From Alphaproteobacteria bacterium (GTDB lineage Bacteria > Pseudomonadota > Alphaproteobacteria > RF32 > CAG-239): a stretch of 64,000 bases of DNA. The DNA is taken from NCBI GenBank assembly GCA_017528205.1, contig JAFXPE010000032.1, forward strand, positions 6,430-70,429, read 5' to 3'. Made by a program: the position numbers and the translations under genes. Of the stretch, positions 5,801 through 56,675 are shown piece after piece. Below the pieces are notes generated by a model. It ran no database searches. It was not told the origin of the DNA and saw nothing but the letters and a program-made list of their open reading frames with translations. Positions within the stretch are counted from its first letter, which is position 1; every line of letters begins with the position of its first letter.

Positions 5801-7169
5801 CGGCAATTCCGAAGTTTTCTTTGCCGTTTGTTTCGATTTTGCTACCGCTCGAAAGCGAGTATTTGTTGTTCACACCGTCTATTCTGACACCGAATGAGCC
5901 TTCGCCGACGGTTGAAATGTTTGAAGTTTGCGTAATTTTGTTATTATCGCCGTAAACATGCAGGCCGACACCCTGAGCAACGGTGCTCGGATTGCCGGTA
6001 TAAGCACGGCCATCCCATTCGGAATAACCGGTATCGAAGTTTTCCGTTAAATTGCTCAAATAATACGACTTACCAAAAAATCGGCGCAAATCAATATCAT
6101 ACCCGATATCTTTCAAAACTGCCAACTCGGCTTCCATCGGCACCAACCAGTTGCGAAAATATTGGTGCGACATAAAGCTGTTGCGCAATTCCAAGTGAGA
6201 TAAGTCAATTTCATCATCATCGGCATTATGTATCGGCATACCCCACACCCGAGGGAGTGTTTCTTCATTTTCGTAACTTACGGAATAATTGGCAAAACCG
6301 CCGTTTTCGATTATGGCAACGCGAGCTTCTTTATAATCGTCTTTTCCGCTCAAAACCTTAACGGTTGTTTCTCCCACATAATAAGGAGAATACGCAAACA
6401 TATCAAAGTCGAGACCTTTGCCGACGGCCATTGCCGCAGTAGGTACAATTTCATAATCCGAATCAAATTCCGTGGGATCGGTTCCGGTATATATTCTCAA
6501 ATCTTTATCGAAAATCCCCAGACTGCCGTCATCTTTTTCCGCAAAATAATATTTTTTATCACCCTCACGACAGGCAGAAGCTTCGGTGCTGATACCTAAG
6601 GAATGCATTATTTCGTGCAGCAAAACGGTGTGCAAATCCGGCAGCGAATAACCGTGGTATAACGAGTGCAGACCGCTATATTCCTGCCAACCCGGATAAT
6701 CTTCATCAACCCCGTGTCCGATGAAGATAAAGCCGTGAACGTCATCAGGAATATCACCCTCGTCGTCATCATCGTCGTCATCGTCCAACGGCTCTTTTTT
6801 GTTAATCATGGCATTGATAGCCGTCACAAGATAAGGAGATTCCTTTATGGCAATACCCGGACTTATGGCCGAAGCGTTATATTCGTTTTCCGTAAATATG
6901 GCATAACCGGCCGGCTCGGAACCTTCCGGAGAAGATAAAACGGTTGCCCATTTTTTGGCCGCGGTATCAAAGGCATTCAAATAAGATTTTTTGATATCAA
7001 ACGCACTTTCATATACTTCGCTGCCCACATCGATTTTCTCTCCCTTTTTATACACCGAAATCTGGTACGAATAATTATCGCCCACAATGGTGTATTTATC
7101 AACGGCAAAAGCCGGAGAAAGATTGAAAAATATCAAACCGAATAAAACTATTATTTTTTTCATGCGCAT
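2850..7169 (-). CDS. type Va autotransporter with an N-terminal zincin (HExxH) protease-like domain
   Basis: 1439 aa.
- Signal peptide MRMKKIIVLFGLIFFNLSPAFA/VD.
- A run of 8 Asp (DNA ~6760-6790) lies ~40 aa before LLHEIMHSLG (DNA 6601-6630).
- The passenger is long, Gly/Asn/Thr/Ile-rich and repetitive (beta-helix-like).
- The last ~280 aa have alternating aromatic/Gly strands ending ..GVEFTAGIRWLFE, as in translocator beta-barrels. Confidence 0.85.
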   Translation of the reverse strand: MRMKKIIVLFGLIFFNLSPAFAVDKYTIVGDNYSYQISVYKKGEKIDVGSEVYESAFDIKKSYLNAFDTAAKKWATVLSSPEGSEPAGYAIFTENEYNASAISPGIAIKESPYLVTAINAMINKKEPLDDDDDDDDEGDIPDDVHGFIFIGHGVDEDYPGWQEYSGLHSLYHGYSLPDLHTVLLHEIMHSLGISTEASACREGDKKYYFAEKDDGSLGIFDKDLRIYTGTDPTEFDSDYEIVPTAAMAVGKGLDFDMFAYSPYYVGETTVKVLSGKDDYKEARVAIIENGGFANYSVSYENEETLPRVWGMPIHNADDDEIDLSHLELRNSFMSHQYFRNWLVPMEAELAVLKDIGYDIDLRRFFGKSYYLSNLTENFDTGYSEWDGRAYTGNPSTVAQGVGLHVYGDNNKITQTSNISTVGEGSFGVRIDGVNNKYSLSSGSKIETNGKENFGIAVTWGKNHVINVENGSSVTATGEKGIAVGFDFGDNMFGHKSDIRGSYTNYSSDSQRNNIPQDEYDEALVKKFNLAGTITGSGAAIYIGETAHVAEINILKGAEINGDILSDWNSAEIGDNAKVQKRDDQRLSGWSPVDATDEAQIYFTDINIAQDFSGIINGSIDGKTEGNNTLRLNNAGNTGISGKSIAVYSLKNSGIIEVESADLAVQNGIIGGNGELNVATDLHLAAEIERIDNTVNLGQDAMFSTINNAVETLDIAQLNANDAYISFELGDKYNLQKASTNNSAAISQIILPVKNADKLNDNATYELFGSADKVLDLGTSYGNVYYDGKKYRVMQDAEKKNLLRVKQAGENKFLPDAAQDETTASYIVTEDKENEDIGVVHGKSFEVSGKDVDVNGYKGMVVDGRLNKSTTLKTGIFGAKDSDIKVISDGKLKVVAQDKDITLGRQDEVALYLKNATAELNSQKHKITVDGAINGFEGGENLLKVTGKSVSFNEMENVDVVLQKAVAEMNAGVRNTSWEINSGELKVADDEFLAADGSNRIVANGGALNLINDKASDINLSKMDLNGGLTANIDIDLSSLSADRLVFFADEDITVNGGSLNIGEINLLNGETALTDAEIEIAFVDEAAHNQNLLGKVKMPTFAAFTPVFKYDIGYGEDENSGSFVLKRGAESEYASYNPAVTVAPVASLAGGYLIQLHSYDEAFRDAGESRQAAEYMGQTMVLPDKTVWIKPSSLFEKVGLKDGPKVRDNMYNLYAGVDSKGTKLAGNWDLQYGVYGGYNYSRQKYSGNTIHQKGGTLGVVARVRKNDLFSALTVNAGVDRADASTMYGKEHFYVFRYGIADKTGYNWRPYRENFVVQPNLLMSYTSVDASNYHNAARVGIKSRPLHAFNIAPGLSLSYAAENGWQPYAEAKVVWSVMNGTKFEAARVDLPEMSVKPYVQYGVGLQKTAGERFSGYGEVNLLSGGRDGVEFTAGIRWLFE

Positions 7170-17292: not shown

Positions 17293-19842
17293 TTATTCAC
17301 GTCCGCCGCGACGACGGTTCATTTTTTTCTGTTTGCGATTGAATTTTCCTTTTGGTTTAGAGGCTTCCTGTTCCAACCATTCCTTATAAGTCATGCGCTC
17401 AATCGAACCGTGGTCCTTATGCTTTTTAGATTGCTGACGCACCCGAATTTCAATATTCGATGCCGACATACCCTCGTTTTCCAGCTCCTCGGCTTTTTCC
17501 ACCGCCTTGCGCATCATATAATCGCCGTCAATGCCTTCACGTTTTTTACCGGTAACATTCATCACCGTAAACAAATGCTCTTGCATCATCAAATTATGGT
17601 CACACAAATCAAAAATAAACAGGTTATTATATCCGGCGCCGGTAATACTGCTGGCACGAACGCAAACCCATTTCTGTCGTTCAAACGAAATCCCTTCCTG
17701 CTTTTTGGTGCCGGCGGAATTGATTAAAAGCGCATCGGAATTAAGACATAAGAAAGGCTTACCCCGTTGTTCGGAAACAATTTCCAACAACGCCGGCAAT
17801 TGCTCTTTATCGCCGTGAACCGCAACGTTAACGATTTCCTGCTCACCGCTTGCCAATTTTTCCTTATTTTTGCAATTTTCAAGCGTCATCTTATGAAACA
17901 GCAGGGTTTCTTCTTTGGTGGCGTGACCGGTACGCTGATACATTACATCGCCGTTTAACACAACTGTTGCCCCCAAACTTTGTATTTTTGCCACCGTCTC
18001 GCGATGCTTGGCTCCGTTAATCGACTCAATCGGACGTTGACGCAACATAAACAAAGTGTTGGCATCAACCGTAAACAGCGGATGTCCGGTATCGCCCTTG
18101 CCTTTAACTTTGCCGTCTTTGCCGACCGACACTTTATTTTGTTCACTCATCAACACCAAACACGACTTACGTCCGGCTTTATCCTCGGCAAACGCCCCGC
18201 TGATAATCATATAGCGCTGTTCCGGCGGATATTTATTCAAATATTTCTGAATATCTGCTTTATCTAAGTCATTCGCGCCGTATATAACATCTTCTATGTT
18301 GATTTTTTCGCCGTTCGGAAACTTCATCAATTCGGTAATAGCTTCAGCCTTAGTCTTAATACCGGCAATCATTGTTTCCTTTTCTTTTTGCGTTAATTCG
18401 GAATCTTTATTGATTTGTGCAATCATTTTGGTCACGGTTTGCTCTTTATTTTTCAGCAAAGCCACCAAGGTTTTCGTAGCGTCGCGCAAGCCCTGACTGC
18501 CGATTAACACCGTTCTTCCAGTCAACGCCGCACTTTTTATATCAATTGCCAAATTCTGCACACTGCGCGCAATCACCGGCGAAAAAATCTGCTTTTCCGG
18601 ATGTTTGGTGATTTCATTATAGGTATTTTCCACTGCCGTATTAAAATCCGGAATTCTGCGTTCATCGTTTTCATCGGTCATTTCCGTGGTTGCCGAGGTT
18701 GAATCCATAAATATGTGCGTAACATTTTTGCGGGCAATAAATTTTTTATAATCCTCGGCGTCAAAGCCTTCACCGAACGGAACTTTATCCAAGTGATAAT
18801 CGCCGGTAAACAACAATCCGGCATTATCCTTGCCGTTTATGGTGGTGGCAACATGAAAACCCAACGCTCCGGCCGTGGAGTGCGAAATATTAAACGGTGA
18901 AACCTTCATATTGTCGCCGATTTCCACCAGCTCACCTTGTTTAACGGTTTCTATTTCCGGCACAAATTCTGCCGGAACACTGTTCTTGCGCATTTGTGTA
19001 TAAATAAAATTACGCGTAAATTCGCTGGTATATATCTTCGGCAACTTAAATTTTGCCGCCGCCAAAAATACCAGCGCCCCGATGTGGTCCTCGTGGCAGT
19101 GAGTTACAAACATAGCATCAATCGGCTTCTCCGCCTTGCCGTACGGACTGTCAAAATACGGCCGCATATCCGGAATCGCCGAATCATAACCTATCCAATC
19201 CGGCGGAAACATTGCGCCGTCATCAATCAAAATCCGCCCCACCGGTTTATCCGGCTCGCTGTGTTCAATTAAAATACTGCTGGCGCCGATGCGATATTCA
19301 TTGTTACCGCCCAAAAAATCAACTCGGGTACCATAACCCTCGTCGTTCATTATTTTTGCCGCTTTCTTTTTCTCTTTATACTGCGTAAACGGATTATTTT
19401 CCGGAACAAGTTGTTTTTCTATATGAGTTGCTTCTTTTAACAAAAGCTTCTTTTTCATTTCGGCTTCTCTTTCGGCTCTTTCCTGCTTCAAGCGTTCCTC
19501 CTCGCCGTTCAGTGCCTCCATTAACTCCGCATTTTCCGCATCCGGCAAATCGGCCAAAGACATCGCCGCAATCTCTGCATAATTTTCATCACGGAAATGC
19601 ACCGTAAAATCTTCATCCGGCCCTTCATAATGAGCATCTTTTTTATATACTCGAGTTGATTTTATATTCGGATTTTTTTGCAAATACTCATATAATTTCA
19701 CAATCTGATGCTCATTAAGCACACAGTTATTTTGAATTATTTTAACGTTTTTGGATTCATCTTCATCGCAAAAAATTTTGACCGAACCGTCACCGTCGTT
19801 ATAATACCCCGGTCTTTCTCTTAATGTTTTAAATTGACTCAT
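17293..19842 (-). CDS. RNase J-like metallo-beta-lactamase / beta-CASP hydrolase with a ~190-aa N-terminal extension and a basic C-terminal tail
   Basis: Track ORF reaches 19902. I prefer ATG 19842 (GGAGAG 8 nt upstream). It carries HCHEDHIGAL (the HxHxDH motif), later FTGDYHLD and MDSTSA, and AVHGD near the C-terminal part. The tail is KPKGKFNRKQKKMNRRRGGRE. Confidence 0.7.
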   Translation of the reverse strand: MSQFKTLRERPGYYNDGDGSVKIFCDEDESKNVKIIQNNCVLNEHQIVKLYEYLQKNPNIKSTRVYKKDAHYEGPDEDFTVHFRDENYAEIAAMSLADLPDAENAELMEALNGEEERLKQERAEREAEMKKKLLLKEATHIEKQLVPENNPFTQYKEKKKAAKIMNDEGYGTRVDFLGGNNEYRIGASSILIEHSEPDKPVGRILIDDGAMFPPDWIGYDSAIPDMRPYFDSPYGKAEKPIDAMFVTHCHEDHIGALVFLAAAKFKLPKIYTSEFTRNFIYTQMRKNSVPAEFVPEIETVKQGELVEIGDNMKVSPFNISHSTAGALGFHVATTINGKDNAGLLFTGDYHLDKVPFGEGFDAEDYKKFIARKNVTHIFMDSTSATTEMTDENDERRIPDFNTAVENTYNEITKHPEKQIFSPVIARSVQNLAIDIKSAALTGRTVLIGSQGLRDATKTLVALLKNKEQTVTKMIAQINKDSELTQKEKETMIAGIKTKAEAITELMKFPNGEKINIEDVIYGANDLDKADIQKYLNKYPPEQRYMIISGAFAEDKAGRKSCLVLMSEQNKVSVGKDGKVKGKGDTGHPLFTVDANTLFMLRQRPIESINGAKHRETVAKIQSLGATVVLNGDVMYQRTGHATKEETLLFHKMTLENCKNKEKLASGEQEIVNVAVHGDKEQLPALLEIVSEQRGKPFLCLNSDALLINSAGTKKQEGISFERQKWVCVRASSITGAGYNNLFIFDLCDHNLMMQEHLFTVMNVTGKKREGIDGDYMMRKAVEKAEELENEGMSASNIEIRVRQQSKKHKDHGSIERMTYKEWLEQEASKPKGKFNRKQKKMNRRRGGRE

Positions 19843-24879: not shown

Positions 24880-25533
24880 TTAATATTTGCGAATTATACC
24901 TGATAAAACGCCTTGTATTTTTACGCGTTCTGCTTCGATAATTCTGGTTTTATAATCTTTATTGCACGGAATTAACTGTACATACATTCCATCTTTTTTC
25001 AAAACCTTAAGCGTTGCTTCCTGATTATCCACCAGTGCCACTACAATTTTGCCGTTATCCGCCTGATTTTGTTTGCGAATAATAGCTGTATCGCCATCCA
25101 TTATACCGGCCTCAATCATAGAATCTCCCTCAATTTTAAGGGCATAAAACTGACCGGTGGAAACCATATTGAACGGAACGGCAATGGTTTCTGTTTCATC
25201 AGCAATAGCCTCAATCGGCGTTCCTGCCGCTATTTTGCCGTAAAGCGGAATTTGCACCGAACCGTTCTGAATAGCTTGCTCACGCTTTTTTTCTTCTTCT
25301 ATAATGGCCTGCGGCTTAAAACGCGGCATTCTGACAACTTCCATTGCCCGCGCTTTATGCGGCAGCCGGCGAATAAAATTGCGCTCCTCCAACGAAGTTA
25401 TCAAAGCGTGGATACCCGATTTTGACTTTAAACCTATTGCATCTTTCATTTCATCAAAAGACGGACATTGACCGGTTTCTTTGTTAACCTTGTTAATAAA
25501 CATCAGTAAATTATATTGTTTTTCCGTCAGCAT
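24880..25533 (-). CDS. lexA: LexA SOS repressor (full length, S24 peptidase)
   Basis: MLTEKQYNLLMFI...GLKSKSGIHALITSLEERNFIRRL winged HTH. It has the long linker typical of alphaproteobacterial LexA. The AAG cleavage site, the GDSM serine and the downstream Lys are all present. I chose the second ATG (25533) because AAGGAG directly abuts the first (25539). Confidence 0.92.
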   Translation of the reverse strand: MLTEKQYNLLMFINKVNKETGQCPSFDEMKDAIGLKSKSGIHALITSLEERNFIRRLPHKARAMEVVRMPRFKPQAIIEEEKKREQAIQNGSVQIPLYGKIAAGTPIEAIADETETIAVPFNMVSTGQFYALKIEGDSMIEAGIMDGDTAIIRKQNQADNGKIVVALVDNQEATLKVLKKDGMYVQLIPCNKDYKTRIIEAERVKIQGVLSGIIRKY

Positions 25534-25554
25534 GGGCATCTCCTTATAAAATTT

Positions 25555-25589
25555 GTTCTATTTTAGTTCTATAAAAAAACAAAAGTCAA
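25555..25589 (-). promoter_or_regulatory. lexA promoter with an overlapping alphaproteobacterial SOS box (GTTC-N7-GTTC)
   Basis: The plus strand reads GTTC TATTTTA GTTC at 25555-25569. On the minus strand, -35 TTGACT (25589-25584), an 18-nt spacer and -10 TAAAAT (25565-25560) place the box across the -10 element. Confidence 0.75.
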
Positions 25590-25692: not shown

Positions 25693-28374
25693 TTAAGCAG
25701 CCTTATTTACCTTGTGTTCCTTTTGGGTTTTGCCGTATTTAACAGCAGCTTGAGCTGCGGCCAAACGAGCAACCGGTACACGGAACGGCGAACAAGAAAC
25801 ATAATCTAATCCGCACTGTTGGAAGAATTCGATAGACTTCGGATCTCCACCGTGTTCACCGCAAACGCCCAAAAGCAATTCCGGATTTGTTTGACGACCG
25901 TATTCGCAAGCGCGACGAACGAGCTTGCCTACGCCTTCGGTATCAATGGAAGCAAACGGATCGGCAACATAAATGCCTTTCGAACGATAGCAATCCAAAA
26001 TAGCGCCGGTATCATCACGGCTCATACCCAAGGTTGTTTGAGTTAAGTCGTTGGTGCCGAAACCGAAGAACGCTGCAGAAGCGGCAATTTCTTCAGCCAT
26101 CAAAGCGGCACGCGGCAATTCAATCATGGTACCTACTTCGTATTCAATAGATTTGCCTTTTTCGGCAAAAATCTTTTGAGCTGTGGTATCAATAATGTTC
26201 TTAACGATATCCAATTCTTTCTTGGAACCGATTAACGGAACTTCGATTTCCGGCGTAACTTTTACGCCTTCTTCGCGGCATTCCATAGCGGCCTCAAGAA
26301 TAGCGCGGGTTTGCATTTCGCAAATTTCCGGATATGTAACGGCCAAACGGCAACCACGGTGACCAAGCATCGGGTTCATTTCGTGCAAAGAATTAGAACG
26401 ATTCTTTACTTCGGCCAAAGTTTTACCCATTTTATCAGCCAATTCCTGCATTTCAGCATCGGTATGCGGCAAAAATTCATGGAGCGGCGGATCCAATAAG
26501 CGGATAACTACCGGATAACCGTTCATGGTGCGATACAATTCTTTGAAGTCTTCCTTTTGATACGGCAACAAACGAGCCAAAGCAGCTCTGCGGCCTTCTT
26601 CATTGTCAGACAAAATCATCATACGCATATCAGAAATACGCTTAGCATCAAAGAACATGTGTTCCGTACGAGCCAAACCGATACCTTCGGCACCAAATTC
26701 AACAGCCTGTCTTGCATCAGCCGGTGTTTCGGCATTAGCGCGAACATGCATGGTGCGAATTTCATCAACCCACTTCATAAAGCGGCCGAAATTGCCGGAG
26801 TTGGTATCAGCCTTAACGGTCGGAATTTTACCTTCGATAATCTGACCTTTAGCACCGTCCAAAGATACCCAGTCGCCTTCTTTAATGCAAGAACCGGACT
26901 TGGTGGTCATGGTTTTTGTGCCATAATCGATTGTAATGTCGGTAGAACCGGAAACGCAAGGAGTACCCATACCTCTGGCCACAACCGCAGCGTGAGAAGT
27001 CATACCGCCGCGAGCGGTAATAACACCTTGAGAAGCGTGCATACCGCCGATATCTTCCGGAGAAGTTTCGTTACGGATTAAGATAACTTTTTCACCTTTG
27101 GCAGCCCAAGCTTCAGCATCTTCAGCGCAGAATACCGCACGGCCCACAGCCGCACCCGGAGAAGCCGGCAAACCGTTAGCAATAACTTTCTTTTCTGCCT
27201 TCGGATCCAACATCGGGTGCAACAATTGATCTAACTGATCGGCACCAACGCGCATAATAGCTTCTTCTTTGGTAATCAAGCCTTCATCGAACATTTCAAC
27301 CGCCATTCTTACGGCAGCGGCAGCTGTTCTCTTGCCGTTACGGCATTGCAACATCCACAATTTACCGTGTTCAATGGTAAATTCCATATCTTGCATGTCT
27401 TTGTAGTGTGCTTCCAAAGCGTTGCGAACATCTACCAATTGCTTATAAAGATTCGGCCACAATTCTTCCAAAGAGTTGCCTTCACCCTTAGAGCTCATCG
27501 GTTGCGGAGTACGAATACCGGCCACAACGTCTTCACCTTGAGCATTTACAAGATATTCACCGTAATATTTGTTTTCACCGGTAGCCGGGTCACGAGAGAA
27601 GCAAACACCGGTAGCCGAATCATTTCCGGCGTTTCCGAACACCATGGTTTGTACGTTACAAGCCGTGCCCCAGTCACCCGGAATGTTGTTTAACTTACGA
27701 TAGGTAATAGCACGAGCCACATTCCAAGAACCGAATACGGCACCGATACCGAGCCATAATTGTTCCCACGGATCTTGTGGAACTACTTTACCCAATTTTT
27801 TACCGATTTCTTTATATTGAGAAACCAATTCCTTCAAATCTTCGGTGGTCAAATCAGTATCCGATTTATAACCCTTAGATTTTTTCATTGCTTCCAAAGC
27901 GCCTTCATATTCATCTAAGTCAGCGCCCAAAACAACATCGGAGAACATTTGAATGAAACGACGATAAGAGTCATAAGCAAATCTTTCGTTGCCCGAAGTT
28001 TGAGCCAAACCTTTAACGCTTTCATCATTCAAACCGAGGTTCAAAACGGTATCCATCATGCCCGGCATGGAAATTCTGGCGCCGGAACGAACCGAGAACA
28101 ACAACGGATTGCTGTTATCGCCGAACTTCTTGCCCATAATTGCTTCAACGCCGGCAACTGCTACTCTAACCTGATCTTTCAAATCAGACGGATAAGTGTT
28201 ATTGTTGGCATAGTAGTATGTACAAACTTCTGTTGTAACCGTAAATCCCGGAGGAACCGGCAAACCAACCTTATTCATTTCTGCCAGGTTGGCACCTTTA
28301 CCGCCGAGGAGGTTACGCATATTGGCATCGCCTTCAGCTTTGCCGTTTCCAAATGTATAAACCCATTTACTCAT
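25693..28374 (-). CDS. ppdK: pyruvate, phosphate dikinase
   Basis: 893 aa. ATP-grasp N-terminus (GGKGANLAEM), phosphohistidine swivel (GGMTSHAAVVARGMG) and a PEP-utilising C-terminus (GSNDLTQ-type: FGTNDLTQTTLG). Confidence 0.95.
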   Translation of the reverse strand: MSKWVYTFGNGKAEGDANMRNLLGGKGANLAEMNKVGLPVPPGFTVTTEVCTYYYANNNTYPSDLKDQVRVAVAGVEAIMGKKFGDNSNPLLFSVRSGARISMPGMMDTVLNLGLNDESVKGLAQTSGNERFAYDSYRRFIQMFSDVVLGADLDEYEGALEAMKKSKGYKSDTDLTTEDLKELVSQYKEIGKKLGKVVPQDPWEQLWLGIGAVFGSWNVARAITYRKLNNIPGDWGTACNVQTMVFGNAGNDSATGVCFSRDPATGENKYYGEYLVNAQGEDVVAGIRTPQPMSSKGEGNSLEELWPNLYKQLVDVRNALEAHYKDMQDMEFTIEHGKLWMLQCRNGKRTAAAAVRMAVEMFDEGLITKEEAIMRVGADQLDQLLHPMLDPKAEKKVIANGLPASPGAAVGRAVFCAEDAEAWAAKGEKVILIRNETSPEDIGGMHASQGVITARGGMTSHAAVVARGMGTPCVSGSTDITIDYGTKTMTTKSGSCIKEGDWVSLDGAKGQIIEGKIPTVKADTNSGNFGRFMKWVDEIRTMHVRANAETPADARQAVEFGAEGIGLARTEHMFFDAKRISDMRMMILSDNEEGRRAALARLLPYQKEDFKELYRTMNGYPVVIRLLDPPLHEFLPHTDAEMQELADKMGKTLAEVKNRSNSLHEMNPMLGHRGCRLAVTYPEICEMQTRAILEAAMECREEGVKVTPEIEVPLIGSKKELDIVKNIIDTTAQKIFAEKGKSIEYEVGTMIELPRAALMAEEIAASAAFFGFGTNDLTQTTLGMSRDDTGAILDCYRSKGIYVADPFASIDTEGVGKLVRRACEYGRQTNPELLLGVCGEHGGDPKSIEFFQQCGLDYVSCSPFRVPVARLAAAQAAVKYGKTQKEHKVNKAA

Positions 28375-47192: not shown

Positions 47193-47279
47193 GCGCTTGT
47201 GGCGGAATCGGTAGACGCTGCAGACTTAAAATCTGTTGGGATTTATCCCGTGCCAGTTCAAGTCTGGCCTAGCGCACCA
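47193..47279 (+). tRNA. tRNA-Leu (anticodon TAA), type II with long variable arm
   Basis: Hand-folded, 87 nt:
- acceptor GCGCTTG/CTAGCGC, with a U6-U67 mismatch
- D arm GCG-GAATCGGTAGA-CGC
- anticodon stem GCAGA/TCTGT, loop CTTAAAA
- variable arm TGGGATTTATCCCGT
- T stem GCCAG/CTGGC, loop TTCAAGT
- discriminator A, then CCA. Confidence 0.9.
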
Positions 47280-47392: not shown

Positions 47393-47416
47393 AAAAACGC
47401 GCAGGATCCTGCGCGT
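47392..47416 (-). terminator. intrinsic terminator ending the leftward early operon
   Basis: A perfect 20-bp palindrome ACGCGCAGGATCCTGCGCGT (47397-47416) is followed on the minus strand by TTTTTT. Confidence 0.7.
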
Positions 47417-47484
47417 CATTTAAGTTCAAAAATGATACACAAACTAAACTTATGTATCATGATGATAGATTTATGTTTAGCAAA

Positions 47485-48562: not shown

Positions 48563-48737
48563 TTTCTTTCTCCTTAATGTATTTACCGGCGCAGCGGTGG
48601 TATTGTGATCTTTTGACTTTTATGACGTCTATTTGCCATTTGGCGCAAAAGTGATACCGGTGACGCTGCGCATATTTATTTGGCCAGTTTTCTAAATACT
48701 GGCAATATTTACAATTTTGGCACATAGTGACTTTCAT
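48555..48737 (-). CDS. small Cys-rich (zinc-finger-like) phage protein
   Basis: 60 aa with CQNCKYC ... C ... C. 4-nt overlap with the upstream gene. Confidence 0.5.
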   Translation of the reverse strand: MKVTMCQNCKYCQYLENWPNKYAQRHRYHFCAKWQIDVIKVKRSQYHRCAGKYIKEKENA

Positions 48738-49099
48738 TTTTTAGCTTTCGTATATGGGCAAGTTAAATATGGGTGGTCACTTTGGCCAAAGAGGCGGCAA
48801 ACTTCCGGCCTCTTGTCATAGATTTTGCATGAGCAAATACCGACAGCGTTACGCTCCAAGAACGGACAAACAAGACTTTCAACAGTGGCCTTAAGTTTAT
48901 CGTCCGGCATTTGTGGGTTTATGCTCTCCATTTTGCGCAGCAGGCTCTTTGGATAAAAGACAAGCTGATCATTAAGCGTGGCTTTTACAAAAGATATATG
49001 CAGCTCTTTGGCCTCGCGTTTAATGGCGCGGTATTCTTTAGCCGTGAACGGCACAAAGCCGCAACAACGGCCGCAGCGGTGGCAAATAAAATCAGTCAT
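48734..49099 (-). CDS. YkgJ-family cysteine-cluster (CxxCxxCC) protein
   Basis: The N-terminal CHRCGRCC and the later CPFL....CSC..Y..RP..CR.F fit the UPF0153/YkgJ zinc- or iron-chelating family. Confidence 0.65.
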   Translation of the reverse strand: MTDFICHRCGRCCGFVPFTAKEYRAIKREAKELHISFVKATLNDQLVFYPKSLLRKMESINPQMPDDKLKATVESLVCPFLERNAVGICSCKIYDKRPEVCRLFGQSDHPYLTCPYTKAKK

Positions 49100-49469
49100 G
49101 AGTTTTCTCCTTTAATCTGGCCAGTGCTTTTTCTATGCGGATTTGCGGCTCAATGTTTTCGGCTGACAGTATGCTGCGCAGGCTGTATCTTAATATTTCA
49201 AGCTCTTCCTGCAGCGCGGCAGCCGACACAAAGTTGAGCAGCGTTGTATCTTTACGCTTGGCTGTTGCCTTAATAACTTCAATGGCGCGTGTTTTGCCTT
49301 TAAGTCGGCGAATATAGCCGCGATCTTCAAGTGCAGTCAAAAGAACGTGAATGCCGGATTTTGATTTTAAGCCAAGTGCGGTGCGCATATCGTCATAAGA
49401 CGGTGCAACGCCGGTGCGCTGTATATATTGCCGGATATATGCAAGCAGTTTATTCTGATTTTGCGTCAT
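49092..49469 (-). CDS. LexA DNA-binding-domain-only homolog (no cleavage site, no S24 peptidase domain)
   Basis: 125 aa. Residues 5-70 ([60 protein letters not shown]) align without gaps to host LexA residues ~5-70, and GLKSKSGIH is identical. The remaining ~55 aa are helical or coiled-coil-like. Confidence 0.75.
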   Translation of the reverse strand: [125 protein letters not shown]

Positions 49470-49641
49470 CGGTTTTCTCCTTTGTTTTGGTTGATCTGGC
49501 TATGCAGTAGGTGGTGAAAAGTTTAAGCACACGCTGCCGGCTTTCCACATTGCGAAACTCTTGAGAACGTGTGCCGCGTGTCCAGTCTTGCAGCGCGCGG
49601 TGGGTGAGTTCTAAAATTTCAGTCTTGTTGAGTTTGGCCAT
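49450..49641 (-). CDS. hypothetical phage protein
   Basis: I prefer ATG 49641 (GGAGG 9 nt upstream). 63 aa. Confidence 0.45.
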   Translation of the reverse strand: MAKLNKTEILELTHRALQDWTRGTRSQEFRNVESRQRVLKLFTTYCIARSTKTKEKTDDAKSE

Positions 49642-49945
49642 AATCAGTGTCCTCCATAAAATTATCACGCAGCCAGTTCTGCAGATAAGTGACAGTGTTT
49701 TTTTCTTGATCTATAAAATTATCACGCAGCCAGTTCTGCAGATAAGTGATTTTGTCTTGATCCCAAGTGTTAGCGCGCAGGCGTTCAAGATCGTGAATAA
49801 CCGGATTGATGGCCGCACGTGCGCTGCGTCTTTCAATAGCTCTACTATCCATACAGCCAAGCTGATAAACAGCCTCTATTGTGCCGGCGGTAGTTAATAC
49901 CGGCCGATGGCTTTTAAGCCAGTGAATAAGTCTATTTTTTATCAT
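49619..49945 (-). CDS. hypothetical phage protein containing an in-frame 57-bp tandem duplication
   Basis: 108 aa. TYLQNWLRDNF occurs twice, 19 aa apart. The underlying DNA has a perfect 37-bp repeat at 49656-49692 and 49713-49749. Confidence 0.5.
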   Translation of the reverse strand: MIKNRLIHWLKSHRPVLTTAGTIEAVYQLGCMDSRAIERRSARAAINPVIHDLERLRANTWDQDKITYLQNWLRDNFIDQEKNTVTYLQNWLRDNFMEDTDYGQTQQD

Positions 49946-50030: not shown

Positions 50031-50209
50031 TTTTTCTGTCCTTTGATGGGTTTGAGTTCTTTTAAGAGTTCGCGCGCAGCGATTTTGACGCGCGCAAGCT
50101 CGCCGAATGGGTTGCCATAGCTTTCGGTAGCCAGATCAGCAATACGCTCAATAATTTTCGGATCAACCGCAATTTTGCGTTTGAATGGGTTAAGCTCTTT
50201 AAATTTCAT
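50027..50209 (-). CDS. hypothetical phage protein
   Basis: I prefer ATG 50209 (MKFKELNPF...), 2 nt after the dut stop. 60 aa. Confidence 0.45.
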   Translation of the reverse strand: MKFKELNPFKRKIAVDPKIIERIADLATESYGNPFGELARVKIAARELLKELKPIKGQKK

Positions 50210-52021: not shown

Positions 52022-52063
52022 TTATTTTCTCCTTAAATTGTGATTAACCGTGATTTAAGGATA

Positions 52064-52117
52064 AAATAAACCATATATGTTTAAGATGTCAAGAGAAAAA
52101 TAAACCATATATGTTTA
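52064..52117 (-). promoter_or_regulatory. leftward early promoter with two copies of the 18-bp operator (left pair)
   Basis: ATAAACCATATATGTTTA occurs at 52066-52083 and 52100-52117. On the minus strand, -35 TTGACA (52092-52087) and -10 TATTTT (~52068-52063) place the first operator in the spacer and -10 region. Confidence 0.65.
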
Positions 52118-52733: not shown

Positions 52734-53102
52734 CTATCTCCCATTTGATTTTTGCGGTGGTGTGAGCGGTTGGCCAGAATGTTCAAGACTGTCTGTTTGT
52801 GTTGATATGTTTTGATTATTACCGCTTTGAGGTGTGGCCGTTTTGCGGATCATGCGTAGGATCTCACGCTCTTCTGGTGTAATTTCTTCCGGTTGCCATG
52901 CCGTTGGTAACACATCAAGAGGCTTGCAACCGAGTGCGGTGGCAATTTTTTCAACCTGCTCAAGATCCATAGAGCGTGCATTATTCTCTAACCGGCCAAG
53001 ATGGACTTGGCTTATACCTATTTTTTCGGCAAGCTGCTCTTGCGTTAATCCGGCTTTTTTCCGCAGTTGCCTGATATTATTCTTAATAATCGTATCAGTC
53101 AT
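52734..53102 (-). CDS. XRE/CI-type HTH phage repressor without a peptidase domain
   Basis: 122 aa. IRQLRKKAGLTQEQLAEKIGISQVHLGRLENN is a canonical HTH_3 motif. The C-terminal 50 aa are Pro/Gln/Thr/Ser-rich with no S24 motifs. Confidence 0.82.
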   Translation of the reverse strand: MTDTIIKNNIRQLRKKAGLTQEQLAEKIGISQVHLGRLENNARSMDLEQVEKIATALGCKPLDVLPTAWQPEEITPEEREILRMIRKTATPQSGNNQNISTQTDSLEHSGQPLTPPQKSNGR

Positions 53103-53180: not shown

Positions 53181-53237
53181 ATAAACCATATATGTTTATT
53201 TTTTATCTTGACTTAATAAACCATATATGTTTATTCT
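53181..53237 (+). promoter_or_regulatory. rightward early promoter with two copies of the 18-bp operator (right pair)
   Basis: ATAAACCATATATGTTTA occurs at 53181-53198 and 53216-53233. -35 TTGACT (53208-53213), an 18-nt spacer and -10 TATTCT (53232-53237) place the second operator over the spacer and -10. Confidence 0.65.
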
Positions 53238-56454: not shown

Positions 56455-56530
56455 TTTACATCACTTTACAAACACTTTACATCAATTTACAAAAAATGAC
56501 TTTACATAATCACGTTAATCAAAGTATAAA
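56455..56530 (+). promoter_or_regulatory. five phased TTTACA repeats, the last forming a candidate late promoter
   Basis: TTTACA occurs at 56455, 56465, 56476, 56486 and 56501 (spacings 10, 11, 10, 15). The last copy, an 18-nt spacer and TATAAA (56525-56530) form a sigma70-like promoter. Confidence 0.45.
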
Positions 56531-56566
56531 AATTGTAGGATAGGGTTTTTAGACTTTATCCGGTAG

Positions 56567-56596
56567 AGGCCACTCATTTGAGCGGCCTTTTTGTTT
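56567..56596 (+). terminator. intrinsic terminator ~35-60 nt downstream of the candidate late promoter
   Basis: AGGCCACTC / GAGCGGCCT stem (one mismatch) followed by TTTTTGTTT. Confidence 0.55.
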
Positions 56597-56641
56597 GGTG
56601 TAACACTGAACAATAACCCTGCGACGGGTTAAGCTCCAAAG

Positions 56642-56675
56642 GCCACGCGCTATTCAACCGGCGCGTGGCTTTCTT
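56642..56675 (+). terminator. second GC-rich hairpin terminator immediately before terS
   Basis: GCCACGCGC (56642-56650) / GCGCGTGGC (56661-56669), then TTTCTTG. It ends 2 nt before the terS ATG. Confidence 0.5.

Follow-up and report, generated by a model that had tools for sequence, protein, structure and literature searches.

Among described phage proteins built on a truncated LexA, gp6 of the Bacillus tectivirus GIL01/Bam35 offers the most direct comparison for the protein analyzed here. It is a 66-residue protein, made early and 44% identical to the head of its host's LexA (PMC6182141). Its site is the palindrome GaCACAC GTGTGaC, located at −43.5 of late promoter P3, which gp6 activates (PMC6182141). 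This is the only functional study of a truncated phage LexA in the literature that we searched (Fornelos et al. 2018; PMC6182141); none was found there for the head-only proteins of lambdoid or alphaproteobacterial phages. Our subject is LexN, a phage protein of 125 residues encoded on the minus strand at 49092-49469 of a 64,000-nucleotide stretch of alphaproteobacterial DNA (GenBank assembly GCA_017528205.1, contig JAFXPE010000032.1, forward-strand positions 6,430 to 70,429), which we call the window. Like gp6, LexN has a LexA DNA-binding domain without the cleavage/dimerisation domain and is, to judge from its operon, the product of an early gene of a temperate phage. The two proteins are 33% identical over 66 residues, and gp6 Lys 38 aligns with LexN Lys 37. 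The differences are equally clear. Whereas gp6 has no tail, LexN carries a 59-residue helical tail; the recognition helix of gp6 is diverged and has its own palindrome, whereas that of LexN is of the host type, with no cognate phage site found; and LexN comes from an alphaproteobacterial tailed phage rather than from a tectivirus of Bacillus.

The other obvious comparison is with LexA itself. Non-cleavable (Ind−) E. coli LexA, whose head is resistant to activated RecA (RecA*) and keeps SOS genes repressed, provides a functional analogy to LexN. The free N-terminal fragment of E. coli LexA also binds operators specifically, but it binds weakly, because it has no dimerisation domain, and it is degraded. 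Such forms arose by mutation in the laboratory or by proteolysis of the host gene's product, whereas LexN is a natural phage gene product with a tail of its own. LexN shares with cellular LexA the winged helix-turn-helix (wHTH) fold, about half of the head residues and probably the half-site. Unlike cellular LexA, it has no linker/cleavage region, no S24 Ser/Lys protease and no SOS box before its own gene, and it would be controlled by the phage repressor, with no RecA*-dependent inactivation. Two small phage proteins, GIL01 gp7 (PMC6182141) and Listeria AriS (PMC9043618), are reported to keep SOS/LexA-controlled promoters off and to affect co-resident elements. In contrast to LexN, neither is homologous to LexA; their action goes through binding of LexA or takes other routes, and they are not known to bind SOS boxes themselves.

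The open reading frame (ORF) of LexN starts with ATG and has AAGGAG upstream of the start. In BLASTP, LexN residues 1-67 aligned without gaps to residues 4-70 of the host LexA, with 35 of 67 positions identical (52%, E 4e-24) and no differences in the segment GLKSKSGIH. The only Pfam match was LexA_DNA_bind (PF01726), which covered residues 1-62 with an E-value of 5.8e-17 and 61.7 bits against a cut-off of 23.7. AlphaFold2 (AF2) predicted residues 1-66 (49272-49469, minus strand) to form a wHTH with helices at 3-19, 25-32 and 38-50 and strands at 53-55 and 63-65 (per-residue confidence, pLDDT, 85-91). When the model was compared with PDB using Foldseek, the best matches were all LexA N-terminal domains (NTDs), namely 3K2Z, 1LEA and 3JSO, the last being the E. 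coli LexA–DNA complex, with root-mean-square deviations of 1.0-1.5 Å across 66-70 residues. The recognition helix, residues 36-50 (49320-49364, minus strand), bears the alphaproteobacterial LexA signature SKSGIH, as identity to the host LexA and a family alignment both indicate. By sequence, profile and fold, LexN is a true homologue of the LexA NTD.

The Pfam scan of LexN gave no match to the S24 peptidase domain (PF00717), and there is no Ala-Gly dipeptide anywhere in its 125 residues; to judge from its sequence, LexN is without everything required for RecA-stimulated self-cleavage. Against the TIGR00498 LexA equivalog model LexN scored 61.2 bits, under the cut-off of 110.95. Its PHROG matches were phrog_3502, 24920 and 362, and a PADLOC screen gave no match for either LexN or its neighbor. 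Lacking an S24 domain, a cleavage site and an autoregulatory box, LexN stands outside LexA proper and groups with the truncated-LexA proteins of phages. The first-pass annotation of this DNA, made without database searches, had described the ungapped match to about the first 70 residues of host LexA, the identical GLKSKSGIH segment and the missing Ala-Gly site and S24 domain, and had proposed alignment and modeling against LexA NTD structures; the searches and the structural comparison bear out each of these observations.

The rest of the protein, residues 67-125 plus the stop codon (49092-49271, minus strand), consists of an 8-residue basic linker and two amphipathic helices. AF2 placed these helices at residues 74-102 and 108-124 with pLDDT 55-75, in agreement with the helical tail of about 55 residues that had been anticipated from the sequence. 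A heptad pattern runs through L86-L90-L93-L97-I100, and together with the two-helix layout it would suit a dimerisation module, for which the tail is a candidate. A homology search with the tail alone returned nothing, and there was no Pfam match in the tail. A vestigial cleavage site at the start of the tail, suggested by a HMMER alignment to the cleavage-site region of T. maritima LexA, was considered and rejected, as the profile–profile comparison (hhalign) of five tails with 16 LexA linker and C-terminal domain sequences gave a probability of 0.1. The motif of the first tail helix recurs in a distant orthologue (P0123) that is 44% identical to LexN. Short amphipathic, zipper-like tails are present in many NTD-only relatives, and their sequences are unrelated to the tail of LexN.

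What DNA would such a protein recognize? The lexA gene of the host, a gut or rumen alphaproteobacterium of low GC content (40%) whose closest genome match is a metagenome-assembled genome from roe-deer rumen, lies 23.5 kb from LexN, at 24880-25539 on the minus strand. It encodes a full-length LexA of 219 residues with wHTH and S24 domains (PF01726 and PF00717), an IAAG cleavage site in the context IAAGTP, the GDSM serine and the TLK lysine, and it scored 170.6 bits against TIGR00498, over the cut-off. The LexA motif of Alphaproteobacteria is the direct repeat GTTC-N7-GTTC (PMC8565304). A perfect box of this kind, GTTCTATTTTAGTTC, is located at 25555-25569 (plus strand), just upstream of the host lexA ribosome-binding site, and the same scan found two perfect boxes ahead of a Rhodobacterales lexA (L003) used as a positive control. 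The host does use the canonical box, and the copy ahead of lexA is the most obvious candidate target of LexN. A second perfect match, GTTCTCGGTTCGTTC at 28085-28099, falls inside an 893-residue ORF (25693-28374, minus strand) and is probably a chance occurrence.

The distribution of conserved residues is consistent with recognition of this box. Identity between LexN and host LexA is concentrated in the DNA-contacting parts, with 13 of 16 residues identical in the helix-3 region and 9 of 13 in the wing, compared with 13 of 38 in the rest (Fisher p 0.0018 and 0.0007). In an alignment (A3) of 28 NTD-only and cellular LexA sequences, LexN residues S36, K37, S38, G39, L47, E48, R50, G51, I53, R54, R55 and R61-V65 were invariant or at least 90% conserved. 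Phage proteins verified by genomic context have the helix motifs SKSGIH, SKSGIY, SKSGIN, QKSGVH, SKSQIH and SRSGAH, while gp6, which has a different target, reads SHKTAHRY at the same residues. In the 71-residue LexA head of Edwardsiella phage EPP-1 the helix reads RSPNAAEDHLKAL, almost matching RSPNAAEEHLKAL in E. coli LexA. In addition, intergenic DNA of the immunity region holds a perfect SOS box in two out of six distant phages (L015, 3298-3312; L018, 3249-3263), and the L015 box lies immediately 3′ of a TTGATC-17-TACAAT promoter. With about 0.07 intergenic perfect boxes expected per locus, we estimate p at about 0.06 for two in six. The presence of such boxes in phages of the LexN type is suggestive only, but it leans toward recognition of SOS boxes; both are candidates for SOS-controlled antirepressor-type promoters that a LexN-like protein could shut again.

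A number of observations weigh against the idea that LexN mimics LexA at SOS boxes. The phage DNA at 47.3-64 kb holds no perfect GTTC-N7-GTTC, as had been noted earlier for the intergenic regions then scanned, nor does phage intergenic DNA contain inverted GTTC/GAAC pairs at spacings of 0-15. As the visible two-thirds of the phage has no SOS box, any phage-borne target would lie in the unseen part. Helix 3 is conserved throughout the LexA family, and the count of SKSGIH among top database matches is biased by ranking. The helix of mEp460/SfV-type proteins, RSVNAAVEHLRAL, has two or three changes relative to E. coli LexA, so that, judging by the helix, the commonest enterobacterial analogue is altered and host-identical helices are not universal in the class. 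LexN is 52% identical to its present host's LexA, compared with 55-60% to other alphaproteobacterial LexAs. The linker ahead of the LexN tail spans about 8 residues versus about 30 in host LexA, and so short a linker may keep a symmetric tail-mediated dimer from fitting the direct-repeat alphaproteobacterial box. Finally, gp6, the only characterized truncated LexA of a phage, is an activator with its own site (PMC6182141).

Over the window, one-mismatch boxes numbered 21 against 39 expected, fewer than by chance. No SOS box was found at the promoter of LexN itself, the sole candidate being a one-mismatch box in the upstream coding region, at 49554-49568 inside a 72-residue gene (49450-49668, minus strand) that overlaps the LexN start by 20 nt. 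We considered this sequence, GTTCTCAAGAGTTTC, 85 nt upstream of LexN, as an autoregulatory box. It is kept in relatives, but this conservation is uninformative, because the surrounding coding stretch is about 90% identical throughout; the GTTC-N7-TTTC variant is also not enriched (3 versus 3.8 expected). A GTTC-N8-GTTC at 50056-50071 falls within a small coding gene. Taken together, the interpretation of LexN as an SOS-box mimic is partly supported.

LexN is under selection over its whole length. Among four phage genomes (the window, L001, L011 and L012), the head had a ratio of nonsynonymous to synonymous substitution rates (dN/dS) of 0.06-0.11 and the tail one of 0.10-0.14, with dS values of 0.66 to 1.75, and because dN/dS is about 0.1 in both, both parts are evidently functional. 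The gene is kept in all five close relatives examined and in one distant orthologue. The dS of the CxxCxxCC gene downstream is about four-fold lower than that of LexN and marks a mosaic junction, and the DNA upstream of LexN is about 90% conserved between phages. LexN is therefore an old, divergent allele between recently shared flanks.

LexN belongs to a leftward operon of overlapping small genes whose products include a dUTPase, LexN, the CxxCxxCC protein, an HNH nuclease and an ASCH-like protein. The operon is headed by a PL-like early-left promoter, TTGACA-18-TATTTT (52063-52116, minus strand), with two flanking 17-bp operators at 52066-52082 and 52100-52116. Two further identical operators, exact copies at 53181-53197 and 53216-53232, occupy the cI/cro intergenic switch (53181-53232, minus strand). 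The operator is a quasi-palindrome, AAACATATATGGTTTAT, present four times without mismatch in the window, on the flanks of the PL-like and PR-like promoters; 0.78 matches with up to three mismatches are expected by chance, and none of 100 shuffles reached four. In related phages the operator varies with the repressor allele, being TGCCAAATTGGCATAT in L001 and TAATCGTTTTATGATTA in L012. The repressor, a cI-like XRE-type HTH protein of 122 residues (52734-53102, minus strand), faces a cro-like gene and, as the first-pass annotation had remarked, has no cleavage domain of the S24 type. The operon ends at an intrinsic terminator (47396-47417, minus strand; a 9-bp stem with six GC pairs, then a T-run) adjoining attL. 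Because its promoter shares the 17-bp operators with the cI/cro switch, LexN is probably a gene of the lytic phase and not of lysogeny, controlled by the repressor like the genes of the lambda PL operon. Consequently, roles in the lysogen, such as dampening of the SOS response there and immunity against competitors, are less likely than roles after induction or infection.

We tentatively favor, with less than even confidence, a model in which LexN, proof against RecA, occupies SOS boxes of the GTTC type while the phage grows lytically. Upon prophage derepression or infection, LexN would be transcribed from the repressor-controlled PL-like promoter. The unrelated two-helix tail would stand in for the dimerisation and self-cleavage domain of LexA, so that LexN would dimerise through its tail, and the dimer would bind SOS-box half-sites of the GTTC type, for example in the box ahead of host lexA. 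While RecA* destroys host LexA, LexN would stay on the DNA, because it has no cleavage site or protease domain. It could thereby restore repression of the LexA kind at the SOS promoters of the host, and at any SOS-box promoters that are phage-borne, during lytic development. The dimerisation, the DNA target and the physiological effect in this scheme are what we infer.

The strongest competing explanation, which we consider somewhat unlikely, is that LexN resembles gp6 in function, binding a phage-specific site other than the host SOS box and activating or repressing phage promoters, for example in middle or late timing, with no direct action on the host SOS response. The precedent speaks for it, since GIL01 gp6, the only studied truncated LexA, is an early protein that activates the late promoter P3 (PMC6182141). 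LexN is likewise an early gene product with a third of its residues in common with gp6, and its Lys 37 aligns with a lysine that is essential for gp6 binding; its PHROG relatives are labeled "transcriptional repressor" or unknown. There is also a possible site, a conserved array of five TTTACA repeats upstream of the late operon that has no assigned binding protein. On the other hand, the recognition helix of LexN is host-type, not diverged as in gp6, TTTACA is unlike the GTTC half-site, and LexN has accessory genes as neighbors (dUTPase, HNH and ASCH, plus Dam in relatives) and is distant from the late promoter. Furthermore, LexN alleles show no co-variation with any visible phage site: they differ by 15-21%, yet the TTTACA array does not vary.

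The organization of the late region bears on the same question. The spacer between a 180-aa gene and terS (56455-56675) is invariant across four phages. It contains the five TTTACA repeats (56455-56510) at 10-11 bp phasing, a promoter-like element TTTACA-18-TATAAA, and a highly structured leader (minimum free energy −65.9 kcal/mol, z −6.1), in which two hairpins resembling terminators precede terS and for which Rfam has no family. A search near the late promoter revealed neither a palindromic site nor one of the GTTC type. The spacer looks like a lambdoid Q/PR'/tR' cassette or, alternatively, a set of TerS-binding repeats. With the late region an apparent Q-type promoter–terminator cassette and a candidate Q-like gene directly upstream, the arrangement suggests, by analogy, a dedicated late regulator other than LexN; since the late operon would then have its own Q/PR'-tR'-like control, a late activator of the gp6 type may be unneeded.

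It is improbable, in our judgment, that LexN works mainly as a protein–protein modulator, its tail contacting host LexA, RecA or another factor and its head only tethering it to DNA. This would recall the modulation of LexA by GIL01 gp7. Phage proteins that act on LexA or the SOS response are known, namely gp7 (PMC6182141) and Listeria AriS (PMC9043618). In keeping with such a role, the tail is constrained as strongly as the head, and the motif of its first helix persists in P0123 despite the low overall identity of that orthologue. However, the tail has no detectable similarity to known interaction domains or to the LexA linker and C-terminal domain, and among other NTD-only relatives the tail sequences are unrelated, which fits generic dimerisation better than a specific partner.

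We assign a slightly lower likelihood still to LexN being a DNA-transaction factor that binds repeated sites for replication initiation or packaging, in the manner of origin- or cos/pac-binding proteins. No replication initiator, helicase or primase is recognizable in the visible early regions of this phage family (47.3-57 kb), where the only matches are to proteins of the YfdP, DUF2303 and DUF6291 types (PHROGs 204 and 210), and LexN has a weak match to a replication-initiation family with a LexA-like wHTH (phrog_270, E 0.006). The phased repeats in the AT-rich spacer adjoining terS could in principle serve as sites. Yet in other phages NTD-only relatives coexist with replication modules containing DUF1376, DnaB and primase; LexN is small and the phrog_270 match marginal; and the repeats beside terS are more simply explained as TerS sites or promoter elements. 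Least credible of all is a decaying remnant of a captured lexA with no present function, as a truncated host-type gene within a mosaic accessory region might suggest, given the strong purifying selection on both parts, the intact ribosome-binding site and start codon, and the retention of the gene in every close relative examined and in the distant orthologue.

How widespread are proteins of this kind? A search of 1.84 billion representative proteins with LexN gave 6730 matches at E ≤ 0.001. Full-length matches were confined to its own cluster (E ≤ 1e-30), and all others shared the head alone. Most of the top matches were shorter than 160 residues, some of them being fragments of true LexA on short contigs. 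For six distant NTD-only relatives with complete genes (P0086, P0084, P0060, P0118, P0076 and P0123) we examined the genomic context. Phage genes surround every one of the six, and five have early-region neighbors, with cro-like, ERF, YqaJ, DnaB, GcrA and S24-repressor genes as markers. In total, seven distant alphaproteobacterial relatives, six of them with the host-type motif, were placed in phage gene neighborhoods, for the most part recognizable as early regions.

A survey of phage databases, one of the checks proposed at the outset, likewise revealed LexA-head-only genes. In the curated phage collection they occur in pelagiphages, a Synechococcus phage and EPP-1, and 68 phage records, mainly lambdoid enterobacterial ones, match as well, including SfV orf42, SfII, mEp460 gp46, cdtI and Stx2 phages; the lambdoid copies are annotated "LexA DNA binding domain protein". 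Like LexN, mEp460 gp46, SfV orf42, EPP-1 lexA_2, pelagiphage HTVC106P gp18 and the proteins of SfII, cdtI, Stx2 phages and Synechococcus phage Ssp-JY39 are small and consist of a LexA head without the rest of LexA, and their genes adjoin replication, Dam or RusA genes, in a nin-type early region in the lambdoid cases. The enterobacterial and marine heads come from other host clades and therefore have a different LexA signature, their tails are unrelated to that of LexN, and the literature that we searched gave no function for any of them; EPP-1 lexA_2, like LexN, keeps a nearly host-identical helix. The one lambdoid locus that we inspected, mEp460 gp46 (L021, 3492-3818; about 108 residues), belongs to the nin-type region, where it has a Dam methylase gene on one side and rusA on the other. 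Its protein has the same layout of head and short helical tail as LexN, with unrelated tails. BLASTP of LexN against mEp460 gp46 produced no alignment, and the link between LexN and the mEp460-type group is based on the EPP-1 tblastn match and on annotation. LexN had at first been regarded as unusual; this view does not hold, since truncated LexA homologues (gp6, SfV, mEp460, Stx2 phages, pelagiphages) are a known phage gene type, to which LexN adds a case with an unusual tail.

The prophage begins at tRNA-Leu(TAA) (47193-47279, plus strand), its probable integration site and left boundary, and extends past the end of the window. Genes for terminase, portal and capsid are present, and the prophage is syntenic both with a 42.4-kb integrase-carrying contig (L011) and with a related prophage at the same psd/pssA locus of another assembly (L012). 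Its status as a prophage is supported by the tRNA-Leu, the terminase, portal and capsid genes and the synteny with the integrase contig, all features read from the sequence. The 42.4-kb contig also carries a diversity-generating retroelement at 16490-19531, in which an RVT_1 reverse transcriptase adjoins an Mtd-like tail-fiber gene. Two near-identical regions of a related phage (L001 and L002) lie 42,130 bp apart on one 80-kb contig (JAFUSH010000052.1, from the rumen metagenome-assembled genome RGIG4780), which points either to a tandem prophage or to an assembly of the concatemer type from a phage genome about 42 kb long.

Immediately downstream of LexN is the CxxCxxCC gene (PF03692, YkgJ-like; 48734-49099, minus strand). 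The 8-nt overlap between the two, ATGACTGA, had been taken as translational coupling. The overlap is real, but the arrangement is not conserved among relatives (L023, L022 and L020). We rejected the CxxCxxCC protein as a functional partner of LexN: a 169-aa gene lies between them in L023, a relative with 98% identity; the IMG/VR phage L022 has a homologue of the CxxCxxCC gene but no LexN; the LexN orthologue P0123 (L020) is followed by a YopX gene instead; and dS changes about four-fold over the junction. The overlap is incidental. Further upstream of LexN, in the ORF at 49619-49945 (minus strand; 108 residues), the DNA encoding ITYLQNWLRDNF is duplicated about 57 bp apart (49650-49760, read by eye), whereas the segment is single-copy in L001 and L023 (93 residues); Tandem Repeats Finder at a score of 40 did not list the duplication. 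Elsewhere in the window, two tRNA-Val genes with anticodons GAC and CAC stand side by side at 15394-15552.

Our analysis thus finds the original observation correct and its interpretation reasonable but unproven, and less novel than first supposed. By all indications from the sequence, LexN is a real, selected, early-lytic phage protein in which a LexA head is fused to a private helical tail, and it is predicted to be incapable of RecA-dependent cleavage. That it silences the DNA-damage response of its host is plausible. If LexN turned out to be a phage regulator like gp6, it would be an ordinary addition to a known family. If it binds SOS boxes, some phages would counteract the SOS response provoked by their own induction or replication. 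It is possible, although we regard it as doubtful, that this reflects a widespread and unrecognized anti-SOS strategy, in which temperate phages of Alphaproteobacteria, and similar ones of enterobacteria and marine bacteria, carry uncleavable LexA heads with private dimerisation tails. With SOS boxes occupied in lytic growth, the damage regulon, SOS-controlled antirepressors and competing prophages or defenses would then be kept shut. Since gp6 combines a diverged helix with its own site and LexN has a host-type helix, helix conservation could sort mimics from re-targeted regulators, and many well-known phages (SfV, Stx2, pelagiphages) have an annotated gene of this type, studied only once, for which the proposal offers a simple hypothesis. 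If the proposal is true, it could have consequences in gut and rumen communities for co-resident prophages, SOS-controlled defense and bacteriocin genes, mutagenesis and the response to antibiotics.

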